Part shown: positions 417 to 34,252 of the stretch, piece after piece
Position numbering within the stretch: position 1 is the first letter of the stretch
How the letters are laid out: every line of letters begins with the position of its first letter
NCBI GenBank assembly: GCA_049975265.1
Contig: JBNGDF010000027.1
Span: forward strand, 1 to 34,252
Reading direction: 5' to 3'
DNA length: 34,252 bases
Source of the DNA: Fidelibacterota bacterium
Lineage (GTDB): Bacteria; Fidelibacterota; UBA2242
Notes under the pieces: generated by a model
What the model was told of the DNA's origin: nothing
Databases searched by the model: none
Seen by the model: only the letters and a program-made list of their open reading frames with translations
Program-made: the position numbers and the translations under genes

Positions 417-2426
417 CTACTTACCGGATTTTTTATTGTTGAAATCGGGATCCCACTTTTCCATACAGTCGGGACACATTCCGTGACTGAATTTGATCTT
501 GGGCAGCCGCTTTGAAATATATTCCGCCGGTGAAACCCAGGGCTTGCCGGGCAGTTCATCGTCCCGGATTTTATTGCAGCCGGCGCAGATTGGAATAAAC
601 CCTTTCAGTCCCTTTGCCTGCTCCGTGGAATTCTCCAGAGCCTGCAAAATCTCCTTCTGGCGGGTGATATCACGAATAATGGCAAAAACGGCTTTCTGAC
701 CCTGATAATCAAGAACCGATACATTGGCTTCTGCGTAGAGACCGGTTCCGTTCTTTCTTCGAAATTCCATCTCAAAACGACCGGGAACCGACTCGCCGTC
801 ATGCCATTTCTGATAAATCTCATCCAGTTCCCGGGATGAGTCCGGCGTAAAGAGTTCGCTTGCTCTGGTCGCGGAGATTTCGGATTCGGTGTAACCGAGC
901 ATGGCTGCGAAAGCATGATTGAAATAGACCAGTTTTTCATGTTGGTAAATGACTACCGCATCCCGGGAGCCCTCAACCATCATTCGGTATTTCGCCTCGC
1001 TCTCCCGGAGTTTTTTCTCCACGGCTTTTCTTTCGATAATTTCGTGAGTCAGATCTTCAATCAACTTTTCCTTCTCACTGTTTATCTGCATTATATCGGT
1101 GTTCTGCTTTCGGAGCAGGACAATCATCTTCTTGAAAGATGTTCGGCTGTAATATATCAGACCCAGGATAATCAGAATGAAGGCACCACCGATGACGAGA
1201 GCATTCCGGACCTGCCTCTGCTGCTTGATTTTTAACCGGTAGATTTCATTGTTTTTGCGGAGAAGGGCATTCTCACGACTCTGCTGTTCGTCATGATACC
1301 TGATTTGCAATTCGGTAAACTTGCTGATTTTCTCCTTGTTAAAAATGCTGTCTTTGACCGCGGAGGCGGTTTTGAAATAGTCCAGCGCCTGGAGAATATT
1401 TCCCTCTTTTTCGGCAATTTCCGCCAGCATAAAGTGGGTATCGCGAATCAGGTCGTTGTATCCGTTCTGTTCTGCCTTGGCGAGACTCCTCAGGACGTAC
1501 TGCCTCGCGCTGTCTATCTTTCCTGTTTCCAGATAGGTTTCTCCCAATTTGAATTCCGCAATGGCGCTGCGAAAACGGTTATCTTTCTGAGCAGCCAATT
1601 GTAATGACTGCCGGTAGTGCCGTAGGGCTGCCGGAAATTGCTCCATTCTGAAGTAGAGGTCGCCCATCTCTTTGGTCACCAGAGACAACGCCCCAATCTG
1701 ATCACTGACCTGATACCGGTCGTATGACAGTTGATAGTACTTCGATGCGCTTTCAAAATCCCCTGCGGCTTCGTAACAGGCACCGAGGTTGATATAGGAG
1801 TAGGCTTGTTCAAAATCACTCTGGCTTTGAATGGCATACTCAAGCGCCTGCCGATGGTATTCAAGTGCTTTATCATAGAGTCCCCATTCCTGATAAATCA
1901 ATCCGATATTATTGATGGTTAAGGATATTCCTCTGATATTATCATCATTTTTCCGAAGGTTGAATGCTCTCTGATACATATCCAGCGCTTCGTTGTAATT
2001 GCTTATTCCCCAATAGACCGCACCGATATTGTTGCAGACTCTGGCAATTCTACGATCATCCTTCAAATCTTCGAAAATAACAAGCGCCTTTTTATAATAG
2101 TCGACAGCCTCATAAAATTTCCCTAGGCGCCAGAAATTATACCCGATATCATTGAGCAGAATACCCCGCTGCAACGTTACGGCTGTGGCTGGCATCAGTT
2201 CAAGCGCCTGAAGCGAATAATCAATGGCTTTATCCAAATCATAATCATCCACATTTGTTCCCAATTTGATCAGGATGGCGACTCTGGCTGAATCGGTTTC
2301 TGCGCTGGCGAGTGCGTGCCGGAGGCTGTCAATGTCGGCGTTCTGAGCCATTGCTCTATGATATGAGCCCGACAATAGTAATAAAACCGCGAAGAGGAAT
2401 ACTTTCCGATATGCGTTCAGATGTAT
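417..2426 (-). CDS. Membrane sensor: signal peptide, extracytoplasmic TPR repeats, TM helix, PAS domain, C-terminal CxxC...HGxCxxC domain (no kinase domain)
   Basis: TPR repeats (NNIGAVY..NYNEALDMY, NNIGLIY..YDKALEYH); TM ALVIGGAFILIILGLIYY; PAS from ESEAKYRMMVE to IIRDIT; tail IPICAGCNKIRDD...FSHGMCPDC. The ORF track starts at TTG 2375, but the frame is open upstream through a signal peptide to ATA 2424-2426 with SD AAAGGA, so the start is uncertain. Confidence 0.85.
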   Translation of the reverse strand: MHLNAYRKVFLFAVLLLLSGSYHRAMAQNADIDSLRHALASAETDSARVAILIKLGTNVDDYDLDKAIDYSLQALELMPATAVTLQRGILLNDIGYNFWRLGKFYEAVDYYKKALVIFEDLKDDRRIARVCNNIGAVYWGISNYNEALDMYQRAFNLRKNDDNIRGISLTINNIGLIYQEWGLYDKALEYHRQALEYAIQSQSDFEQAYSYINLGACYEAAGDFESASKYYQLSYDRYQVSDQIGALSLVTKEMGDLYFRMEQFPAALRHYRQSLQLAAQKDNRFRSAIAEFKLGETYLETGKIDSARQYVLRSLAKAEQNGYNDLIRDTHFMLAEIAEKEGNILQALDYFKTASAVKDSIFNKEKISKFTELQIRYHDEQQSRENALLRKNNEIYRLKIKQQRQVRNALVIGGAFILIILGLIYYSRTSFKKMIVLLRKQNTDIMQINSEKEKLIEDLTHEIIERKAVEKKLRESEAKYRMMVEGSRDAVVIYQHEKLVYFNHAFAAMLGYTESEISATRASELFTPDSSRELDEIYQKWHDGESVPGRFEMEFRRKNGTGLYAEANVSVLDYQGQKAVFAIIRDITRQKEILQALENSTEQAKGLKGFIPICAGCNKIRDDELPGKPWVSPAEYISKRLPKIKFSHGMCPDCMEKWDPDFNNKKSGK

Positions 2427-17533: not shown

Positions 17534-19366
17534 ATGGAATTAAAAAAAGACCTGAAAGTGATTGAGGTGTTCAGTATTGCCACCGGTGCGATGATCAGCT
17601 CCGGGATTTTTATTTTGCCGGGAATCGCCTTCGCCAAAACCGGTCCTTCCCTCTTTCTATCTTACCTGTTTGCCGGAATACTGGCGCTCACCGGTGCCTT
17701 CAGCATCGCAGAACTCTCCTCGGCTATGCCCAAAGCGGGCGGGGATTACTTTTTCATCACCCGCAGTCTGGGGCCGGTATTCGGCACAGTTTCCGGACTT
17801 TTAAGTTGGTTTGCGCTTTCGCTGAAGACGGTGTTCGCCATTATCGGTATTTCAGAAATTCTGCATATTTTCTGGGGCTGGAATCTGCTGCTCTCGGCAT
17901 TTTTATTAACCACCGGTTTTCTGATCATTAATATTCTTGGAGTCAAGGAATCCGGCAAATTTAAGGTGGCGATAGTCGTGTTGCTGCTGGGGATCGTGCT
18001 GTTTTATCTTTTCCGGGGCTTGCCAGAGGTGGAGATCATAAAATTTCAGGACTTCGCCCCCGAGGGCGTTAACTCGATTTTTATGACCGCCGGATTTATA
18101 TTTGTAGCATACGGTGGTCTCTTAAAAATCGCCAGTATCGCCGAAGAGGTCGATTCCCCTAAAAAGACAATCCCCCTTGGTATGTTCTCATCGCTGTTTG
18201 TGGTTACGATTTTGTATACCCTCATCACAATCATCGTCGTGGGAACAGTTGTCCCCGAAACACTGCGCAATTCCATGACACCGATTGCCGATTCAGCCGG
18301 TGTCTTTCTCGGAAAACCGGGAATTATTCTGCTGACCATAGCGGCACTGCTGGCCTTTATCAGTACTGGCAATGCCGGCATTCTTGCCGCCTCACGCTAG
18401 CCTTTTGCCCTGAGTCGCGATAAACTACTGCCCGATTTCATCAGCCGGGTCAACAAACGCTCCGGAACACCGATTATCTCGATTATTATCACCGGTCTGT
18501 TAATCAGTCTCTCCTTCTTTCTGCAACTTGACATTCTGGTGAAAACCGCCTCGACGGTCGTGATTTTAACCTATATCCTGTCTCAGGCATCGATCATTAT
18601 TTTGCATGAAAGCAAACTGAGTAACTATAGACCCTCCTATCGCGCCCCTCTCTATCCCTGGCTGCCGATTATCAGCATTGTGCTCTTTCTATTCCTGATT
18701 TTCGATATGGGGCTGTCGGTAATTCTGATCAGCTGCGGTCTGGTGCTGTTCGGCGTCATCTTCCACCTTCTCTACGGACGGAAAAAATACAGTCAGGAAT
18801 ATGCGTTGCTTGATTTCATCGGTCGGATTCTGAATCGCAAATTTGTCTCCGATAATCTGAACAGCGAGCTGAAGCAGATATTATCCGAGCGGGACGATAT
18901 TGAATTCGACCGATTTGATCATCTGGTCAACGACGCTGTTTATCAGGACCTGGACGGCTGCCTGAACCGGACAGAGCTGTTTCAAAAGATTGCCGATTCC
19001 CTGTCGAAAAAAATGAATATACCGGCGGATAAGCTGTTGCAACTGCTGGAAAACCGGGAAGCCGAATCCAGTACCGCGATTACGGATTTTATCGCCGTGC
19101 CGCATATCATTGTGGAAGGGAAAAACCTGTTTGAAATGGCAATCATCCGCTGTAAAAAGGGTGTCCGTTTTTCAGATGAACATCCCGCCGTCAAGGCAAT
19201 TTTCGTGCTTGCCGGCTCAGCCGATGAACGCAATTTTCATCTGAAAGCCCTGTCCTCAATCGCTCAGATCAGCATGCGCTCCGATTTTCAAAAATCATGG
19301 ATGATGGCAGGCAACACCAACGAGCTGCGGGACCTTATCCACCTCGCCGAGCGGCATCGGCACTAA
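17534..19366 (+). pseudogene. APC-family amino acid permease fused to a C-terminal PTS EIIA (Ntr/Fru-type) domain, interrupted by an in-frame TAG at codon 289
   Basis: ORFs 17534-18400 and 18539-19366 are in the same frame. Read-through gives ...GILAASR*PFALSRDKLLPDFISRVNKRSGTP...LDILVKTAS..., a continuous 610-codon gene. APC motifs GAMISSGIF and AELSSAMPKAGG; EIIA motif RE..SSTAI...IAVPH. GGAG SD. Confidence 0.85.
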
Positions 19367-21150: not shown

Positions 21151-22212
21151 TTACAGCCACTTTTTCCGTTTGAAATAGAGCCCCATTCCCAGACCGACAA
21201 GCAGCATTACCAACAACGCCACCGGGTAACCGGCTTTCCAATCCAGCTCCGGCATATATTGAAAATTCATCCCGTAGACCCCGGCGATAAAGGTCAGCGG
21301 TATGAAGATCGTCGCAATGATGGTCAAGACCTTCATCACTTCATTCATACGGTTGCTTACCGTAGAGAGATAGATATCCAGCATGCCGGTGACGATATCC
21401 CGCAAATTTTCAACGGTATCCATGATCTGAATCGTGTGATCATAGACATCCCGGAAGAAAAGCCTGGTTTCGTCCCTGACCAAATCCGATTCCAGACGAT
21501 CAATCTGACCCAAAACCTCCCGCAACGGCCAGACCGTTTTGCGCATGAAAATCAACTGCCGCTTCAGGTTATGAATGCGCTGCAGCACCGAGGAATCGGC
21601 GTCTTTGAGCAGATTATCTTCCAACTGTTCTGTTGTCTCGGCGATATATTCCAGAACATTAAAGTAATTGTCCACGATCGCATCCAGCAGAGCATAAAAG
21701 AGATAATCGGAATGTTCACGCCGGATACGCCCCCTGTTTTTCCTCAGGCGCTCCCGGATCGTATCAAAGACATCGCCCTCCTTCTCCTGAAACGTGAGCA
21801 GATAATTCTTACCAATAACAAAAGAGATTTGCTCACTATTCAGCTCCTCCTGACTCGGTTCATATGTCAGTATTTTGGCAATGGAGTAACAGGACTGTCC
21901 GTACTCTTCAAATTTGGGACGGTTTTCGGTGTTGACAATATCCTCCAGAACCAGCGGGTGAATGTCAAAAATCTTCCCGATTTTCCGGATGATTTCCATG
22001 TTGTTCAAGCCGTTGATATTGATCCAGCTGACCGTATCATCAGCCAGACAGGTCTCTAATTCAGCGGGATTTTGAATCACTTTTTCCGTCACTGATTCGG
22101 CATTGTAATCAAACAGCGTCAGGGTGGTTGGAACATCCTGATTATCGCCGATATAGACCAGGGTACCCGGTGGCAGTCCCGGCTTTTTGTTGCGCCTGCG
22201 TATAATTTTCAT
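21151..22212 (-). CDS. corA: Magnesium/cobalt transporter CorA
   Basis: KPGLPPGTLVYIG, IHPLVLEDI, NEVMKVLT, AGVYGMNF..MPEL, terminal KKWL. Confidence 0.97.
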   Translation of the reverse strand: MKIIRRRNKKPGLPPGTLVYIGDNQDVPTTLTLFDYNAESVTEKVIQNPAELETCLADDTVSWININGLNNMEIIRKIGKIFDIHPLVLEDIVNTENRPKFEEYGQSCYSIAKILTYEPSQEELNSEQISFVIGKNYLLTFQEKEGDVFDTIRERLRKNRGRIRREHSDYLFYALLDAIVDNYFNVLEYIAETTEQLEDNLLKDADSSVLQRIHNLKRQLIFMRKTVWPLREVLGQIDRLESDLVRDETRLFFRDVYDHTIQIMDTVENLRDIVTGMLDIYLSTVSNRMNEVMKVLTIIATIFIPLTFIAGVYGMNFQYMPELDWKAGYPVALLVMLLVGLGMGLYFKRKKWL

Positions 22213-22218
22213 AATACA

Positions 22219-23070
22219 TTACCCTTTCTGCTCTTGAAAAATATCCCTGAATCGTTTAAAAAGCGACGCTTCGTGGGTCTCTTTCGAAACTTCAGCAGTA
22301 CTGTCATCCGGTTTGCCCGATTCCTTTATCACCTTATGAGTATACTTTTCCATCTCCTCTTTAGTGACCAGCAGACAGACACAATTTGAAATCTCATTTT
22401 TGTAATTCACAATCGGATAGATGACGAGGTTGACCGGAATCGGCTCCTCAAAGGAGTCCAGTGAAAGCGGGCTCTGCAGCGCCACATACTTGGATTTTCG
22501 CAGCTCCTGCAAAACCGGGGTGAAGGAAAATTCATCGAACACATTTTCCGCATACTGATTGAGCAGCTCCTTCTCGCTGACATCCATCTGCTCCACCAGA
22601 TGCTGACTGACTTTAGTGATCATCCCCTGGGCATCGAGAACAAAAACAGGCAGGTCAATTTTATCAAGTAATAAATTAAGCATATTCGATAAACTACTGA
22701 TTTTCAGCGTCTTCATCTCGTTTAGTTCATTCAGTTTTCGATGAATCTCGATAATTTTTTCGCCCAGTTTCCCCAGCTTTTTCAGCTGCAGTCCGCTGGA
22801 GTATTTCCCCTGGCGGGAGAGCTCGATGATCTTATTCAGTTCGCGGTACACATTCCGGCTTTTCAGCAGCGCAGCGATAAAAATTGCCGACAGAACAATC
22901 AGCAGAACGGCAACCAGGTAGAGGAAATTTTCCGCAAAATACTTCAGCGTCAGTGAACCATCGGTGTTGAATTTTATAAATAATAGATAGCCGTACACAC
23001 CGATAAAAGCAATCGCCAGAAACGCAAAAAGGTAGAGCAGAAAAATGCGCAGTTTTGTAATCAGAAACAT
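22219..23070 (-). CDS. Hypothetical membrane protein: 2 TM helices, HAMP/coiled-coil-like linker, PAS-like domain
   Basis: Two N-terminal hydrophobic helices. LLDKIDLPVFVLDAQGMITKVS...ELLNQYAENVF...IYPIVNYKNEISNCVCLL resembles a PAS fold. TGATG overlap with ktrA. Confidence 0.75.
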   Translation of the reverse strand: MFLITKLRIFLLYLFAFLAIAFIGVYGYLLFIKFNTDGSLTLKYFAENFLYLVAVLLIVLSAIFIAALLKSRNVYRELNKIIELSRQGKYSSGLQLKKLGKLGEKIIEIHRKLNELNEMKTLKISSLSNMLNLLLDKIDLPVFVLDAQGMITKVSQHLVEQMDVSEKELLNQYAENVFDEFSFTPVLQELRKSKYVALQSPLSLDSFEEPIPVNLVIYPIVNYKNEISNCVCLLVTKEEMEKYTHKVIKESGKPDDSTAEVSKETHEASLFKRFRDIFQEQKG

Positions 23071-23783: not shown

Positions 23784-25544
23784 TTACCCGATTAATATAT
23801 TTCCAGCCGGATATTTTATCCGGATCTGATCCGGCTTCTGCGACATGGCAATGATCAGTGTCATCGGTCCCAGGCGACCGATAAACATCAGCACAATAAT
23901 CGTTATTTTACTGAAACCACACAGGCTGCCGGTTATTCCCGTCGACAAGCCCACCGTTCCAAAGGCGGATACCGTCTCGAACAGAATCTGCTCAAGCGGA
24001 AATTGCTCGAGCAGACTGAGAATAAGAGTTCCGCTGAAAACGGCACAACCGGCGAGCAGAATAATCAGAAACGACTCATTGATGATCCGCTTTGATAAAA
24101 AGTTGTTCAATAGTGTCGTCTCTTTTCGGTTGTAAAAAACTGATTTCAAATAAGCAAAGATCACTCCCACGGTATTCACTTTGACGCCACCTGCCGTCGA
24201 ACCCGATGCACCACCGATGAACATAAACAGGCACATCAGCAGCAGAGTCGGAATCCGCAAGGCAGCCATATTGATCGTATTAAAACCCGCGGTACGGAGG
24301 GTCACCGACTGGAAAAAGGCTGCCATATATTGAGTCTTCAGATCGTGATGGACGAGATTCCCGCGATGCTCCAGACCGTAAACCAGCAACATGCCGCTGA
24401 AAATCAGGATCACCGTCATTATCAGGACCACCTTTGTGTTGAGTGTCAATTGCGACTTGCGAATCCGGCGACTCAAAATACTCGTCTCCAGATTGGTTTT
24501 GAATTTTTCAACCAGATTGAATATTACTGAAAAACTGATGCCTCCGATAATAATCAAGCCGGCAATGGTGAAATTCATTCCGGGATCACTTTTGAAATGC
24601 TCCAAACTGTCGGTAAACAGAGCAAAACCGGCGTTACAGAACGCCGAAACGGCGTGAAACAGTGCATAAAATGCCGCCTTGAGCGAATCGCCGTACAGAT
24701 TGTTGAAATTTCCATACAGAATCAATGCACCGGTCAATTCAATTCCAAAGGTGATGAAGATGATTTTCATGATGGACGTGGAAATCTTCTCCATATCCTG
24801 CTCATTCAGCAGATAGGACAGCGCCAATTTCTCCTCGATGGATATGCGTTTCCCGATGACAAAGGCGCCGAAATAGGACAGGATCATGATTCCCAGTCCG
24901 CCGATCTGGATGAGGATCATGATCACAATTTTTCCGAACAGCGAAAATTTGGTCGCCGTATCCACCACAATCAGACCGGTCACACAGACCGCCGATGTCG
25001 CCGTAAAGAGAGAGTTGATAAAACCAAGGCGTGTATTGTCAGCGGTGGAAACGGACAGCATCAGAAAGATCGTGCCGACTAAAATGATAATAATAAAACT
25101 GAATGCAATCGTCTGCGCCGGGTGGCTCGAAATGGATTTGATATAGGCATTCAAACGTTTTACCCGCCCGAGTATTTTCAAAATATTGAAAGCGTTCCGC
25201 ACCAAAATAATGTTGGTGGACAATCGGCTGACGCCCCCTGCCCCCAGTATGTAACGCATATAACGCGTATAGATAAACAGCGCAACAATTACCATCAGCA
25301 GTAAAAGATCGAAGAGATTACCGCGGACATAGGCGAGTTTATTTTGCACCCGGTAAAGCCGTATCACCGTCTCACTGACGAACAGAATGATGATTATATA
25401 ATCGAGAACATTAGTGATCCAGAAAACCGTGCGGGTCTGGTGGATTCCGTATTCCAGAAACAGCGAAAGGATACTCAGAAACAGTACCAGAACGACAATC
25501 TGGTCAATTAATTGGTGTTTATGATTTGCAGATGTTGTCGTCAT
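23784..25544 (-). CDS. ktrB: KtrB/TrkH-family potassium channel subunit with a ~140-aa N-terminal extra membrane domain
   Basis: Four pore motifs (SAVCVTGL, SAFCNAGF, TLRTAGF, SAFGTVGL), loop GGASGSTAGGVK, gate MFIGRLG. The core begins at about P142. Confidence 0.93.
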   Translation of the reverse strand: MTTTSANHKHQLIDQIVVLVLFLSILSLFLEYGIHQTRTVFWITNVLDYIIIILFVSETVIRLYRVQNKLAYVRGNLFDLLLLMVIVALFIYTRYMRYILGAGGVSRLSTNIILVRNAFNILKILGRVKRLNAYIKSISSHPAQTIAFSFIIIILVGTIFLMLSVSTADNTRLGFINSLFTATSAVCVTGLIVVDTATKFSLFGKIVIMILIQIGGLGIMILSYFGAFVIGKRISIEEKLALSYLLNEQDMEKISTSIMKIIFITFGIELTGALILYGNFNNLYGDSLKAAFYALFHAVSAFCNAGFALFTDSLEHFKSDPGMNFTIAGLIIIGGISFSVIFNLVEKFKTNLETSILSRRIRKSQLTLNTKVVLIMTVILIFSGMLLVYGLEHRGNLVHHDLKTQYMAAFFQSVTLRTAGFNTINMAALRIPTLLLMCLFMFIGGASGSTAGGVKVNTVGVIFAYLKSVFYNRKETTLLNNFLSKRIINESFLIILLAGCAVFSGTLILSLLEQFPLEQILFETVSAFGTVGLSTGITGSLCGFSKITIIVLMFIGRLGPMTLIIAMSQKPDQIRIKYPAGNILIG

Positions 25545-25619: not shown

Positions 25620-26702
25620 CTATTCCAATTTGTAGTTCTTCAAACCCCAGATGACCTCCGTCAGGGTTACCTTGATAATACCGGTCACCGGTACGGCAAA
25701 CAGCATTCCTACGGCGCCTGCCAGATTCCCACCGATGATCACAACAATGACCACGGTCAGGGGATGCATATCGACACTCTTGGAGACCACCATCGGCGAT
25801 ACAAACGAGTTATCGATTACCTGTACCAGGACAAAAGTAATAATGATCCAGAGCAGTACCACCCCCAGATTCGCCGGATTGCTGAGGATCGCCACCAGCA
25901 GCGCCGGTACCGCACCAACAATCGGACCCAGATAGGGAATCAGATTGGCGACTCCGGCGATCATCCCGATAAACACAAACTGGGGAACGGGATTATCAAA
26001 AACCTGGTTGATGATAAACAGCCCCAGGACCGATAAACATCCGACGATAAAGGCATCTGTCGCCTGCCCCTGAATGTATTTGCTGACCTGATGCCCCACT
26101 TTCTGCAACACGTTCAGAGACATCTCGAAATATTTATTCGGAATTTTCGCAATCAGGGCACGTTTGAACTGCCGAATATCTTTAATCAGAAAAAAGGTGA
26201 TAAACGGTACAATTGCGATAGACGCCATAAAACTACCGACACTCTTGAAAAATTCCGCCATTTTGCTCAGCAATTTCAGACCGATTTCGTTGAATTTGGA
26301 GGTTACATTGCGGGCTAATTCGGCATTATTAAAATTGACCGCAAAGAAGGTTTCGATCCGACGGTTTATATCGTTGATCACATTGGATTGCAGCTTCGAC
26401 GAAAGTGACTCTACAGCGCGGATAATGCCGGGAATGATTAAACTCACCGTGAAAGCGATAATCCCGACAATCAGCAACATGGTTATCAATATCGACACGC
26501 CCCGATGAACGCCGTGGCTTTCCAGAAAATCAACCACGGGATTCAATAACACCGCCAGCAGTAACGCAAAAACAAACATTACCAGCACCGATTTGACATA
26601 GGGAAAGACGACGATCACCACCGCAATGCCGAGAAGAATGGCAAATACCCGCCAGAACATCTTTACGATATGGCTGTAGAGCTGAAAAGCGTAATCATCC
26701 AT
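25620..26702 (-). CDS. AI-2E (PerM/UPF0118) family transporter
   Basis: LAVLLNPVVDFLE, FITFFLIKD, YIQGQ, NLIPYLGP, QVIDNSFVSP..VSKSVDMHP, GMLFAVPV. Confidence 0.92.
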   Translation of the reverse strand: MDDYAFQLYSHIVKMFWRVFAILLGIAVVIVVFPYVKSVLVMFVFALLLAVLLNPVVDFLESHGVHRGVSILITMLLIVGIIAFTVSLIIPGIIRAVESLSSKLQSNVINDINRRIETFFAVNFNNAELARNVTSKFNEIGLKLLSKMAEFFKSVGSFMASIAIVPFITFFLIKDIRQFKRALIAKIPNKYFEMSLNVLQKVGHQVSKYIQGQATDAFIVGCLSVLGLFIINQVFDNPVPQFVFIGMIAGVANLIPYLGPIVGAVPALLVAILSNPANLGVVLLWIIITFVLVQVIDNSFVSPMVVSKSVDMHPLTVVIVVIIGGNLAGAVGMLFAVPVTGIIKVTLTEVIWGLKNYKLE

Positions 26703-27228
26703 TGGTATATCCCTCGTTTGCTTTCAGTGCCGACAGCTGCTCATTGGTCCGCCGCAGGCGCTCACCGATGACTTTCGACAAGGAAAACAGAATCTTGATC
26801 CCCAGCCGCGGCTTCCGGTAAAGCAGGTCCAGAAAATCGGGACGAAAAAAGCCCAGAATTTCACATTTTTCGTTGGCAATCGCCGATGCGGAACGGGGTG
26901 ATTCATCCAGCAGCGCCAGGTCTCCAAAAAAGGCACCATCCTTCAACTCCGCCAGAGTGGTGGCGCTTTCGCCCTCTTTTTCCTCCACAATGTTCACAGA
27001 ACCGGTGACAATGATATACATCCCCAGCCCCGGGTCTCCCATCCGGAAAATCGGCTCACCCTTTTTATATTCCCGACGGTGAATGATCTTCTCCACTTCG
27101 TTCAGCTCTTTCGGATTCAGATCGGAAAAAATCGGCACGTTCTTCAAAATATTGAAAATATCCTCGTCACTACGCTGTTTGCGAAACCGAACAACCTCCC
27201 ATATTGGACTATCCATCGCTGATTTCAT
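26695..27228 (-). CDS. Stand-alone cyclic nucleotide-binding domain protein
   Basis: LKNVPIFSDL, IFRMGDPG.GMYIIVTGSV, FFGDLALLDESPRSASA, C-helix; no HTH. Overlaps the AI-2E start by 8 bp. Confidence 0.92.
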   Translation of the reverse strand: MKSAMDSPIWEVVRFRKQRSDEDIFNILKNVPIFSDLNPKELNEVEKIIHRREYKKGEPIFRMGDPGLGMYIIVTGSVNIVEEKEGESATTLAELKDGAFFGDLALLDESPRSASAIANEKCEILGFFRPDFLDLLYRKPRLGIKILFSLSKVIGERLRRTNEQLSALKANEGYTNG

Positions 27229-34178: not shown

Positions 34179-34252
34179 GGGCCTCTAGCTCAACGGTTAG
34201 AGCGCCGGACTCATAATCCGTCGGTTCGGGGTTCGAATCCCCGGGGGCCCAC
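34179..34252 (+). tRNA. tRNA with CAU anticodon, most likely tRNA-Ile2 (lysidine-modified); 3' end cut by the window edge
   Basis: Acceptor GGGCCTC/GGGGCCC, D-arm GCTC/GAGC, anticodon loop CTCATAA, T-arm CGGGG-TTCGAAT-CCCCG, discriminator A 34251. C4-G69 and C5-G68 are TilS determinants; G1-C72 is paired, so not an initiator tRNA. Confidence 0.93.

Follow-up and report, generated by a model that had tools for sequence, protein, structure and literature searches.

The ktrB operon and its neighbours

The DNA analysed here, referred to as the window, is a 34,252-nt stretch from a Fidelibacterota bacterium (assembly GCA_049975265.1, contig JBNGDF010000027.1, positions 1–34,252, forward strand). 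It carries a reverse-strand operon of ktrB, ktrA, and a third gene, followed by corA (Table 1). The ktrA gene begins 21 nt downstream of ktrB and encodes a single-RCK subunit, and the same adjacency is found in relatives. The start of the third gene overlaps the ktrA stop (TGATG). The corA gene follows this cassette only in close relatives; in one spirochaete locus it lies upstream of ktrB, and a K+/Mg2+ link is possible.

Table 1. Features of the ktr operon, with positions in the window
Feature	Position	Strand	Basis or remark
ktrB with N-terminal voltage-sensor-derived domain, 586 aa	23784..25544	-	ORF, Pfam, TIGR00933, alignment to solved KtrB, AlphaFold, Foldseek
N-terminal domain, aa 1–140 of KtrB	25125–25544	-	
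S1 helix, aa 5–33	25446..25532	-	AlphaFold, family alignment
S2 helix, aa 38–65, with D48, F55, E58, R62 (D-x6-F-xx-E-xxx-R)	25350..25433	-	Aligns to S2 of solved Nav/Kv chains
Short S2–S3 helix (aa 69–75) and S3 (aa 77–100), with N76-x-x-D79	25245..25340	-	
Unbroken helix, aa 109–138: charge-poor putative S4 (R116, N117, K123, R127), then basic S4–S5-linker-like stretch (K129, R130, K136)	25131..25220	-	
KtrB core, four M1-P-M2 repeats: filter glycines G190, G306, G420, G532; gate arginine R557; C-terminal G586	23787..25121	-	
ktrA, RCK subunit, TrkA_N and TrkA_C, 230 aa	23070..23762	-	
Third gene, 283 aa: two predicted membrane helices, HAMP-like coil, PAS-like domain, no kinase; candidate accessory subunit	22219..23070	-	
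corA Mg2+ transporter	21151..22212	-	7 nt downstream of third gene

By its sequence, the ktrB frame is an intact KtrB. Similarity begins at aa 134, and aa 134–586 match solved KtrB with an E-value of 4e-81, versus only 0.012 for TrkH. The protein scores 338 bits against TIGR00933 (cut-off 331.15), and Foldseek aligned the core to solved KtrB at E 3.5e-28. Each of the four M1-P-M2 repeats has its filter glycine. Among 115 homologues, G452, G453, and K455 of the intramembrane-loop gate and the gate arginine are invariant, and G586 is kept in at least 90%. The loop gate, gate arginine, and C-terminal glycine are given as KtrB features in passages of PMC12059179. ATP/ADP-gated K+ uptake is the putative function of this KtrAB. 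An assembly chimera or frameshift was ruled out by the single open frame here and in relatives from several phyla.

Immediately upstream of ktrB, on its strand (window 25620–27228), lie genes for a free-standing 177-aa protein that binds cyclic nucleotides and for a transporter of the AI-2E family. Their order is kept in most host-family relatives, and none were seen beside ktrB in spirochaete loci. No upstream riboswitch reached the Rfam gathering score in the window or in eight loci, where only tRNAs were found; one tRNA gene lies at the contig end (window 34179–34251, + strand). At 417–2375 (- strand) a 652-aa protein has TPR repeats followed by a PAS domain, and Pfam gave no output domain. 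At 17534–19366 (+ strand) an amino-acid permease is fused to a PTS EIIA domain with one in-frame TAG (18398–18400). The frame reads as permease on both sides of this codon, which more probably reflects a nonsense mutation or a fault in the assembly than recoding. The host genome also has a second, distant Trk/Ktr-family gene (contig C1, about 162700–163250).

Homology of the N-terminal domain to voltage sensors

In voltage-sensing domains, FxxExxxR in S2 and NxxD in S3 form the charge-transfer centre. The first-pass annotation had placed 140 aa before the KtrB core, read them as four helices resembling S1–S4, and proposed a chimera of a voltage-sensing domain and Ktr. The extent of this segment agrees with the onset of KtrB similarity, and F55, E58, R62, N76, D79, R116, K123, R127, K129, and R130 each lie where that annotation had put them. 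AlphaFold predicted the four helices and a short helix between S2 and S3 (boundaries in Table 1), with the first KtrB helix starting at aa 142. The suggested Pfam search of aa 1–140 returned Ion_trans at E 1.3e-7 and 31.5 bits, above the cut-off of 25. Sequence homology and predicted topology support the chimera.

A Pfam scan of the whole protein gave TrkH only; Ion_trans (PF00520) surfaced with the isolated 140 aa, and it is annotated for 2 of the 120 best homologues. The fusion appears to have been overlooked because whole-protein Pfam scans mask the sensor domain.

Profile searches against the PDB, which matched solved Kv, Nav, and Cav sensors, point the same way. In one search, all 15 matches at E ≤ 1 were chains of the voltage-gated-channel family. 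In a second, 38 of 47 belonged to this family, and the remaining nine were TehA (E 0.12–0.21). Alignment by hhalign reached a probability of 96%, covering S1–S3a only and leaving S4 unaligned. Sensor homology was scored at E ≤ 0.1 by 13 of 20 family members. A profile built from the N-terminal halves of 11 bacterial Kv proteins gave the domain 34.0 bits, whereas none of 1000 shuffles exceeded 13.8 and the reversed sequence scored 0.2. With this profile, ktrB was the sole significant match among 10163 ORFs of the host genome; this test is partly circular, since those Kv proteins were retrieved using the fusion's own profile. A chance hydrophobic match was ruled out by the Ion_trans score together with the shuffle, reversal, and genome tests. 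SLC9C1 structures (8otx, 8pcz) were among the fold matches, and an ESM Atlas feature search with aa 1–140 returned unnamed clusters only, with scores up to 0.83.

Homology of aa 1–140 to voltage-sensor S1–S4 is firm at the sequence level for the S1–S3a part. For helix 109–138, assignment as S4 is suggested by topology and by Pfam coverage to aa 138. AlphaFold predicted this S4 as one helix unbroken into the linker. S3 does not have the proline present in the Kv controls examined.

Distribution, loss, and S4 charges in the family

Among named homologues, the nearest come from Candidatus Marinimicrobia/Neomarinimicrobiota and share up to 87% identity across aa 1–200. Named carriers also include Spirochaetes, with cultured Treponema denticola and T. 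putidum, Omnitrophota, and a Myxococcales record. The domain profile matched 44 of 201 host-phylum genomes, three of them by weak matches in ORFs of 150–506 codons, and 246 clusters at 50% identity. Among the best 150 of these 246 clusters, 86 run on into a KtrB core, six are Kv channels, and 58 are neither. The 58 are mostly short, look mostly like fragments, and do not demonstrate a stand-alone form of the domain. Of 81 spirochaete genomes, 53 contain a Ktr/Trk-family reading frame 560 codons or longer. Among 28 such loci examined, the domain profile still matches 13 and no longer matches 15. The N-terminal part spans about 120–165 aa in most long forms examined. A search of plasmids gave one weak match (E 0.9).

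Four genomes of the host's order have the ktrB–ktrA–third gene arrangement with a KtrB of 464–472 aa. No sensor remnant was found in any frame upstream of these four genes. In a 45-row tree their products group with the host protein (SH-aLRT 97) inside the long-form clade, and the short N-terminus that they retain is partly basic and resembles the linker. With the operon kept in this sister lineage, the domain is dispensable in at least one lineage. A fifth short KtrB lies elsewhere in the long-form clade. Some short KtrBs fall within the long forms, weakly supported, in a 129-row FastTree but not in the 45-row tree. At L089/L051 (G328:C40) a long KtrB has one TAG just past S4, parting sensor from core. 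A 1356-aa KtrB–AcrB fusion (L077, G279:C32:1–6000) is an artefact in which a run of N joins two genes.

Charges were compared in 101 diverse full-length fusions, kept at <65% mutual identity from 274. The longest every-third K/R run in S4 is at most two in all 101, versus 3–8 in 10 of 13 control channel proteins and two in the other three, the controls being counted over a wider stretch than the S4 of the fusions. In the host protein the longest run is two (R127, R130), at the cytoplasmic end and short of the three taken as a repeat. R116, K123, and R127 are spaced i, i+7, i+11, which bears out the caution of the first-pass annotation that the S4 charges do not strictly follow an every-third spacing. 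F55, E58, and D79, its proposed charge-transfer residues, are all present in the host protein and are held in 74, 92, and 67% of 115 close relatives (E or D counted at 58 and 79), but family-wide the triad is complete in only 32 of 101 fusions. The same 115 relatives keep R116 in 89%, K123 in 94%, R127 in 98%, D48 in 98%, and E58 in 89%. Across the 101 fusions, E31 in S1 is E or D in 77. The best-kept S4 positions are N/Q117 (83) and K/R130 (85), position 130 already being in the linker. P142, which opens the first KtrB helix, is present in all 101.

The fusions fall into two S4 types. The pair K123/R127 is present in 51, of which 41 also have R116; these keep D48 (50) and E58 (43) and often lose F55 (29) and D79 (25). 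The pair is absent from the other 50, of which only four have R116; these keep F55 (49) and D79 (44) and often lose E58 (20). The complete triad and the pair occur together in 17 of 101, or 17 of the 51 pair-bearing fusions. The types are defined by the S4 residues themselves; a core-only FastTree nevertheless separates them, with 56 of 129 rows, including the host protein, in one clade (support 100) and a charge-poor clade of 48 rows (99). Acidic residues track the buried basic ones, and F55 and the S3 Asp do not, a pattern closer to static salt bridges than to conservation of a charge-transfer centre. These charges are equally what one would expect in the host's clade if its domain were a weak sensor moving about one charge. 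Real sensors with few S4 charges exist, among them BK and KCNQ1.

The first-pass annotation had suggested that the chimera may respond to membrane potential. The complete triad of the host protein speaks for such a response; it is nonetheless the less likely reading, and voltage gating is doubtful because no S4 run exceeds two, the triad is complete in 32 of 101 fusions, the K123/R127 pair is absent from 50, and a sister lineage no longer has the domain. Judged from these patterns, the domain is a charge-poor relative of the voltage sensor, and the KtrB that carries it is probably not voltage-gated.

The third gene was found after ktrA in 37 of 60 long-KtrB loci with enough DNA and was missing in 23, a count in which many loci helped build the profile, related loci are not independent, two rows were left out (internal stop, contig end), and four further loci were set aside for lack of sufficient DNA. 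An invariable three-gene cassette was thereby ruled out. Beside short KtrBs it was found in none of 12 chosen by family search; five intact short KtrBs chosen via the third gene itself have it. In most members PAS scores at or below cut-off. Distant homologues of 231–269 aa with 2TM, HAMP-like, and PAS-like parts (L136, L138–L144) lie away from ktr, beside housekeeping-like genes, in several spirochaetes. Complex prediction for the third protein with KtrB aa 8–586 scored 0.51, versus 0.00 for the best control, with runs agreeing in 100% of contacts and partner pLDDT of at least 73; no interface was given. Among reference pairs, 116 of 157 solved ones and 2 of 215 mismatched ones attained this mark, but only 18 of the solved pairs, along with both mismatched ones, did so at scores of 0.60 or below. 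Taken together with the conserved operon as a prior, this weak support gives physical association of the third protein with KtrB about an even chance.

Possible roles of the domain and related systems

In Vibrio KtrAB, ATP-driven opening requires a short disordered N-terminus to attach to membrane lipid by its basic and hydrophobic residues (PMC12059179). Here the basic helix aa 127–138, continuous with S4, lies at that position. We lean towards a KtrAB-type subunit whose four-helix domain descends from a voltage sensor, likely no longer senses voltage, and would instead anchor and tune the gating N-terminus. The sensor would have been joined through its own S4–S5 linker to the first KtrB helix, which replaces S5, and would then have lost its every-third charge repeat. 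The few buried charges would be held as static salt bridges, R116 and K123 by D48/E31 and E58. By holding the basic linker against the inner face of the membrane, the site of the gating N-terminus in short KtrB, the domain would alter the ATP/ADP set-point at which the KtrA ring acts. As a further regulator, the product of the third gene would likely dock on the KtrB core.

In the host's clade, a low-charge sensor might still work, with the F55/E58/D79 centre occupied by K123 and D48 paired with R116; helix motion on a change in potential would pull the linker and first KtrB helix, giving both voltage and nucleotide gating. The S2 and S3 motifs are canonical in the host protein, the S4 basic residues are conserved across the well-supported 56-row clade, and the 19 aa from K123 to P142, versus 20 for the S4-to-S5 equivalent in one Kv (L058), make the mechanical link look preserved. 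This is unlikely given the every-third repeat in 0 of 101 fusions, the joint triad and pair in only 17, one sensor per pore rather than four, an S4 predicted as unbroken with its linker, and loss of the domain in close relatives. A broader form of this idea, a three-component Ktr in the host's clade made up of a KtrB gated by its own minimal voltage sensor, a nucleotide-sensing KtrA ring, and an undescribed 2TM/HAMP/PAS subunit, is improbable taken whole. Were it true, the Ktr/Trk/HKT superfamily would gain its first member gated by both voltage and ligand, for which charge-free and sensor-less variants would serve as natural controls and Treponema denticola as a cultured member.

A purely structural relic, serving membrane insertion, stability, or dimer packing like the extra N-terminal helices of TrkH and leaving gating unaffected, would account for a domain that is very divergent or unrecognisable in many lineages, was lost at least once, and has a charge-free S4 in the 48-row clade. 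It is distinctly unlikely: about 120–165 aa are retained in most long forms examined, specific polar residues are held at 89–98% in the host's clade, and attachment is exactly at a site that controls opening in Vibrio KtrB (PMC12059179). The domain might also be a docking site for the third gene's membrane protein, passing on a PAS-sensed signal. The gene's presence in 37 of 60 long-KtrB loci, versus none of the 12 short KtrBs from the family search, and the weak predicted binding to KtrB agree with this. Such a role is very improbable, as five intact short KtrBs without the domain keep the third gene, 23 of 60 long loci lack it, and the complex prediction came without an interface.

Ktr/Trk is the main bacterial potassium-uptake route and is described as gated by an RCK ring, with at most a short N-terminal helper. 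The fusion is a real, widespread, and apparently undescribed KtrB variant, a subfamily with a voltage-sensor-derived domain at the Ktr gating site. Charged S4, charge-free S4, and loss of the domain form a natural series for how a sensor grafts onto a foreign pore and what follows charge decay, and conservation of the third gene suggests that Ktr may have a subunit not yet recognised. No description of the fusion was found in the full-text literature searched, whose coverage excluded most subscription journals, transporter databases, and Supplementary Fig. 12 of PMC12059179 (an alignment of KtrB N-termini). In the covered part of PMC6888753 the word "voltage" does not occur, and PMC5379921 was likewise among the literature covered.

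The closest known system is KtrB of KtrAB from Bacillus subtilis (4j7c, 8k1s) and Vibrio alginolyticus (7zp9, 7zpr), which is alike in its core from end to end, the four filter glycines, the loop gate, the gate arginine, and a separate adjacent ktrA. The solved KtrB sequences found are 436–465 aa with a short N-terminus, whereas four additional membrane helices and a third operon gene are present here. TrkH of TrkAH belongs to the same superfamily and also has additional N-terminal membrane helices. In TrkH these are two; here there are four, derived from a sensor, and the partner is a single-RCK KtrA of 230 aa. The S1–S4 domains of Kv, Nav, and Cav channels (PF00520; KvAP 1ors, 4dxw, Kv2.1) share the S1 Glu, the S2 motif D-x6-F-xx-E-xxx-R, the short S2–S3 helix, N-x-x-D in S3, and, by prediction, the four-helix topology. 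The present domain differs from them in having neither the every-third Arg repeat nor the S3 proline, and in placing one sensor on a pseudo-tetrameric pore formed by a Ktr core. Voltage-sensor-like domains of TRP and PKD2 occur in tetrameric six-helix channels, and no sequence evidence ties them specifically to the KtrB fusion. In SLC9C1, the sperm Na+/H+ exchanger, a sensor domain is likewise attached to a transport protein that does not belong to the voltage-gated channel family. SLC9C1 is eukaryotic, has a different transporter fold, and its S4 keeps a full arginine repeat and gates transport.
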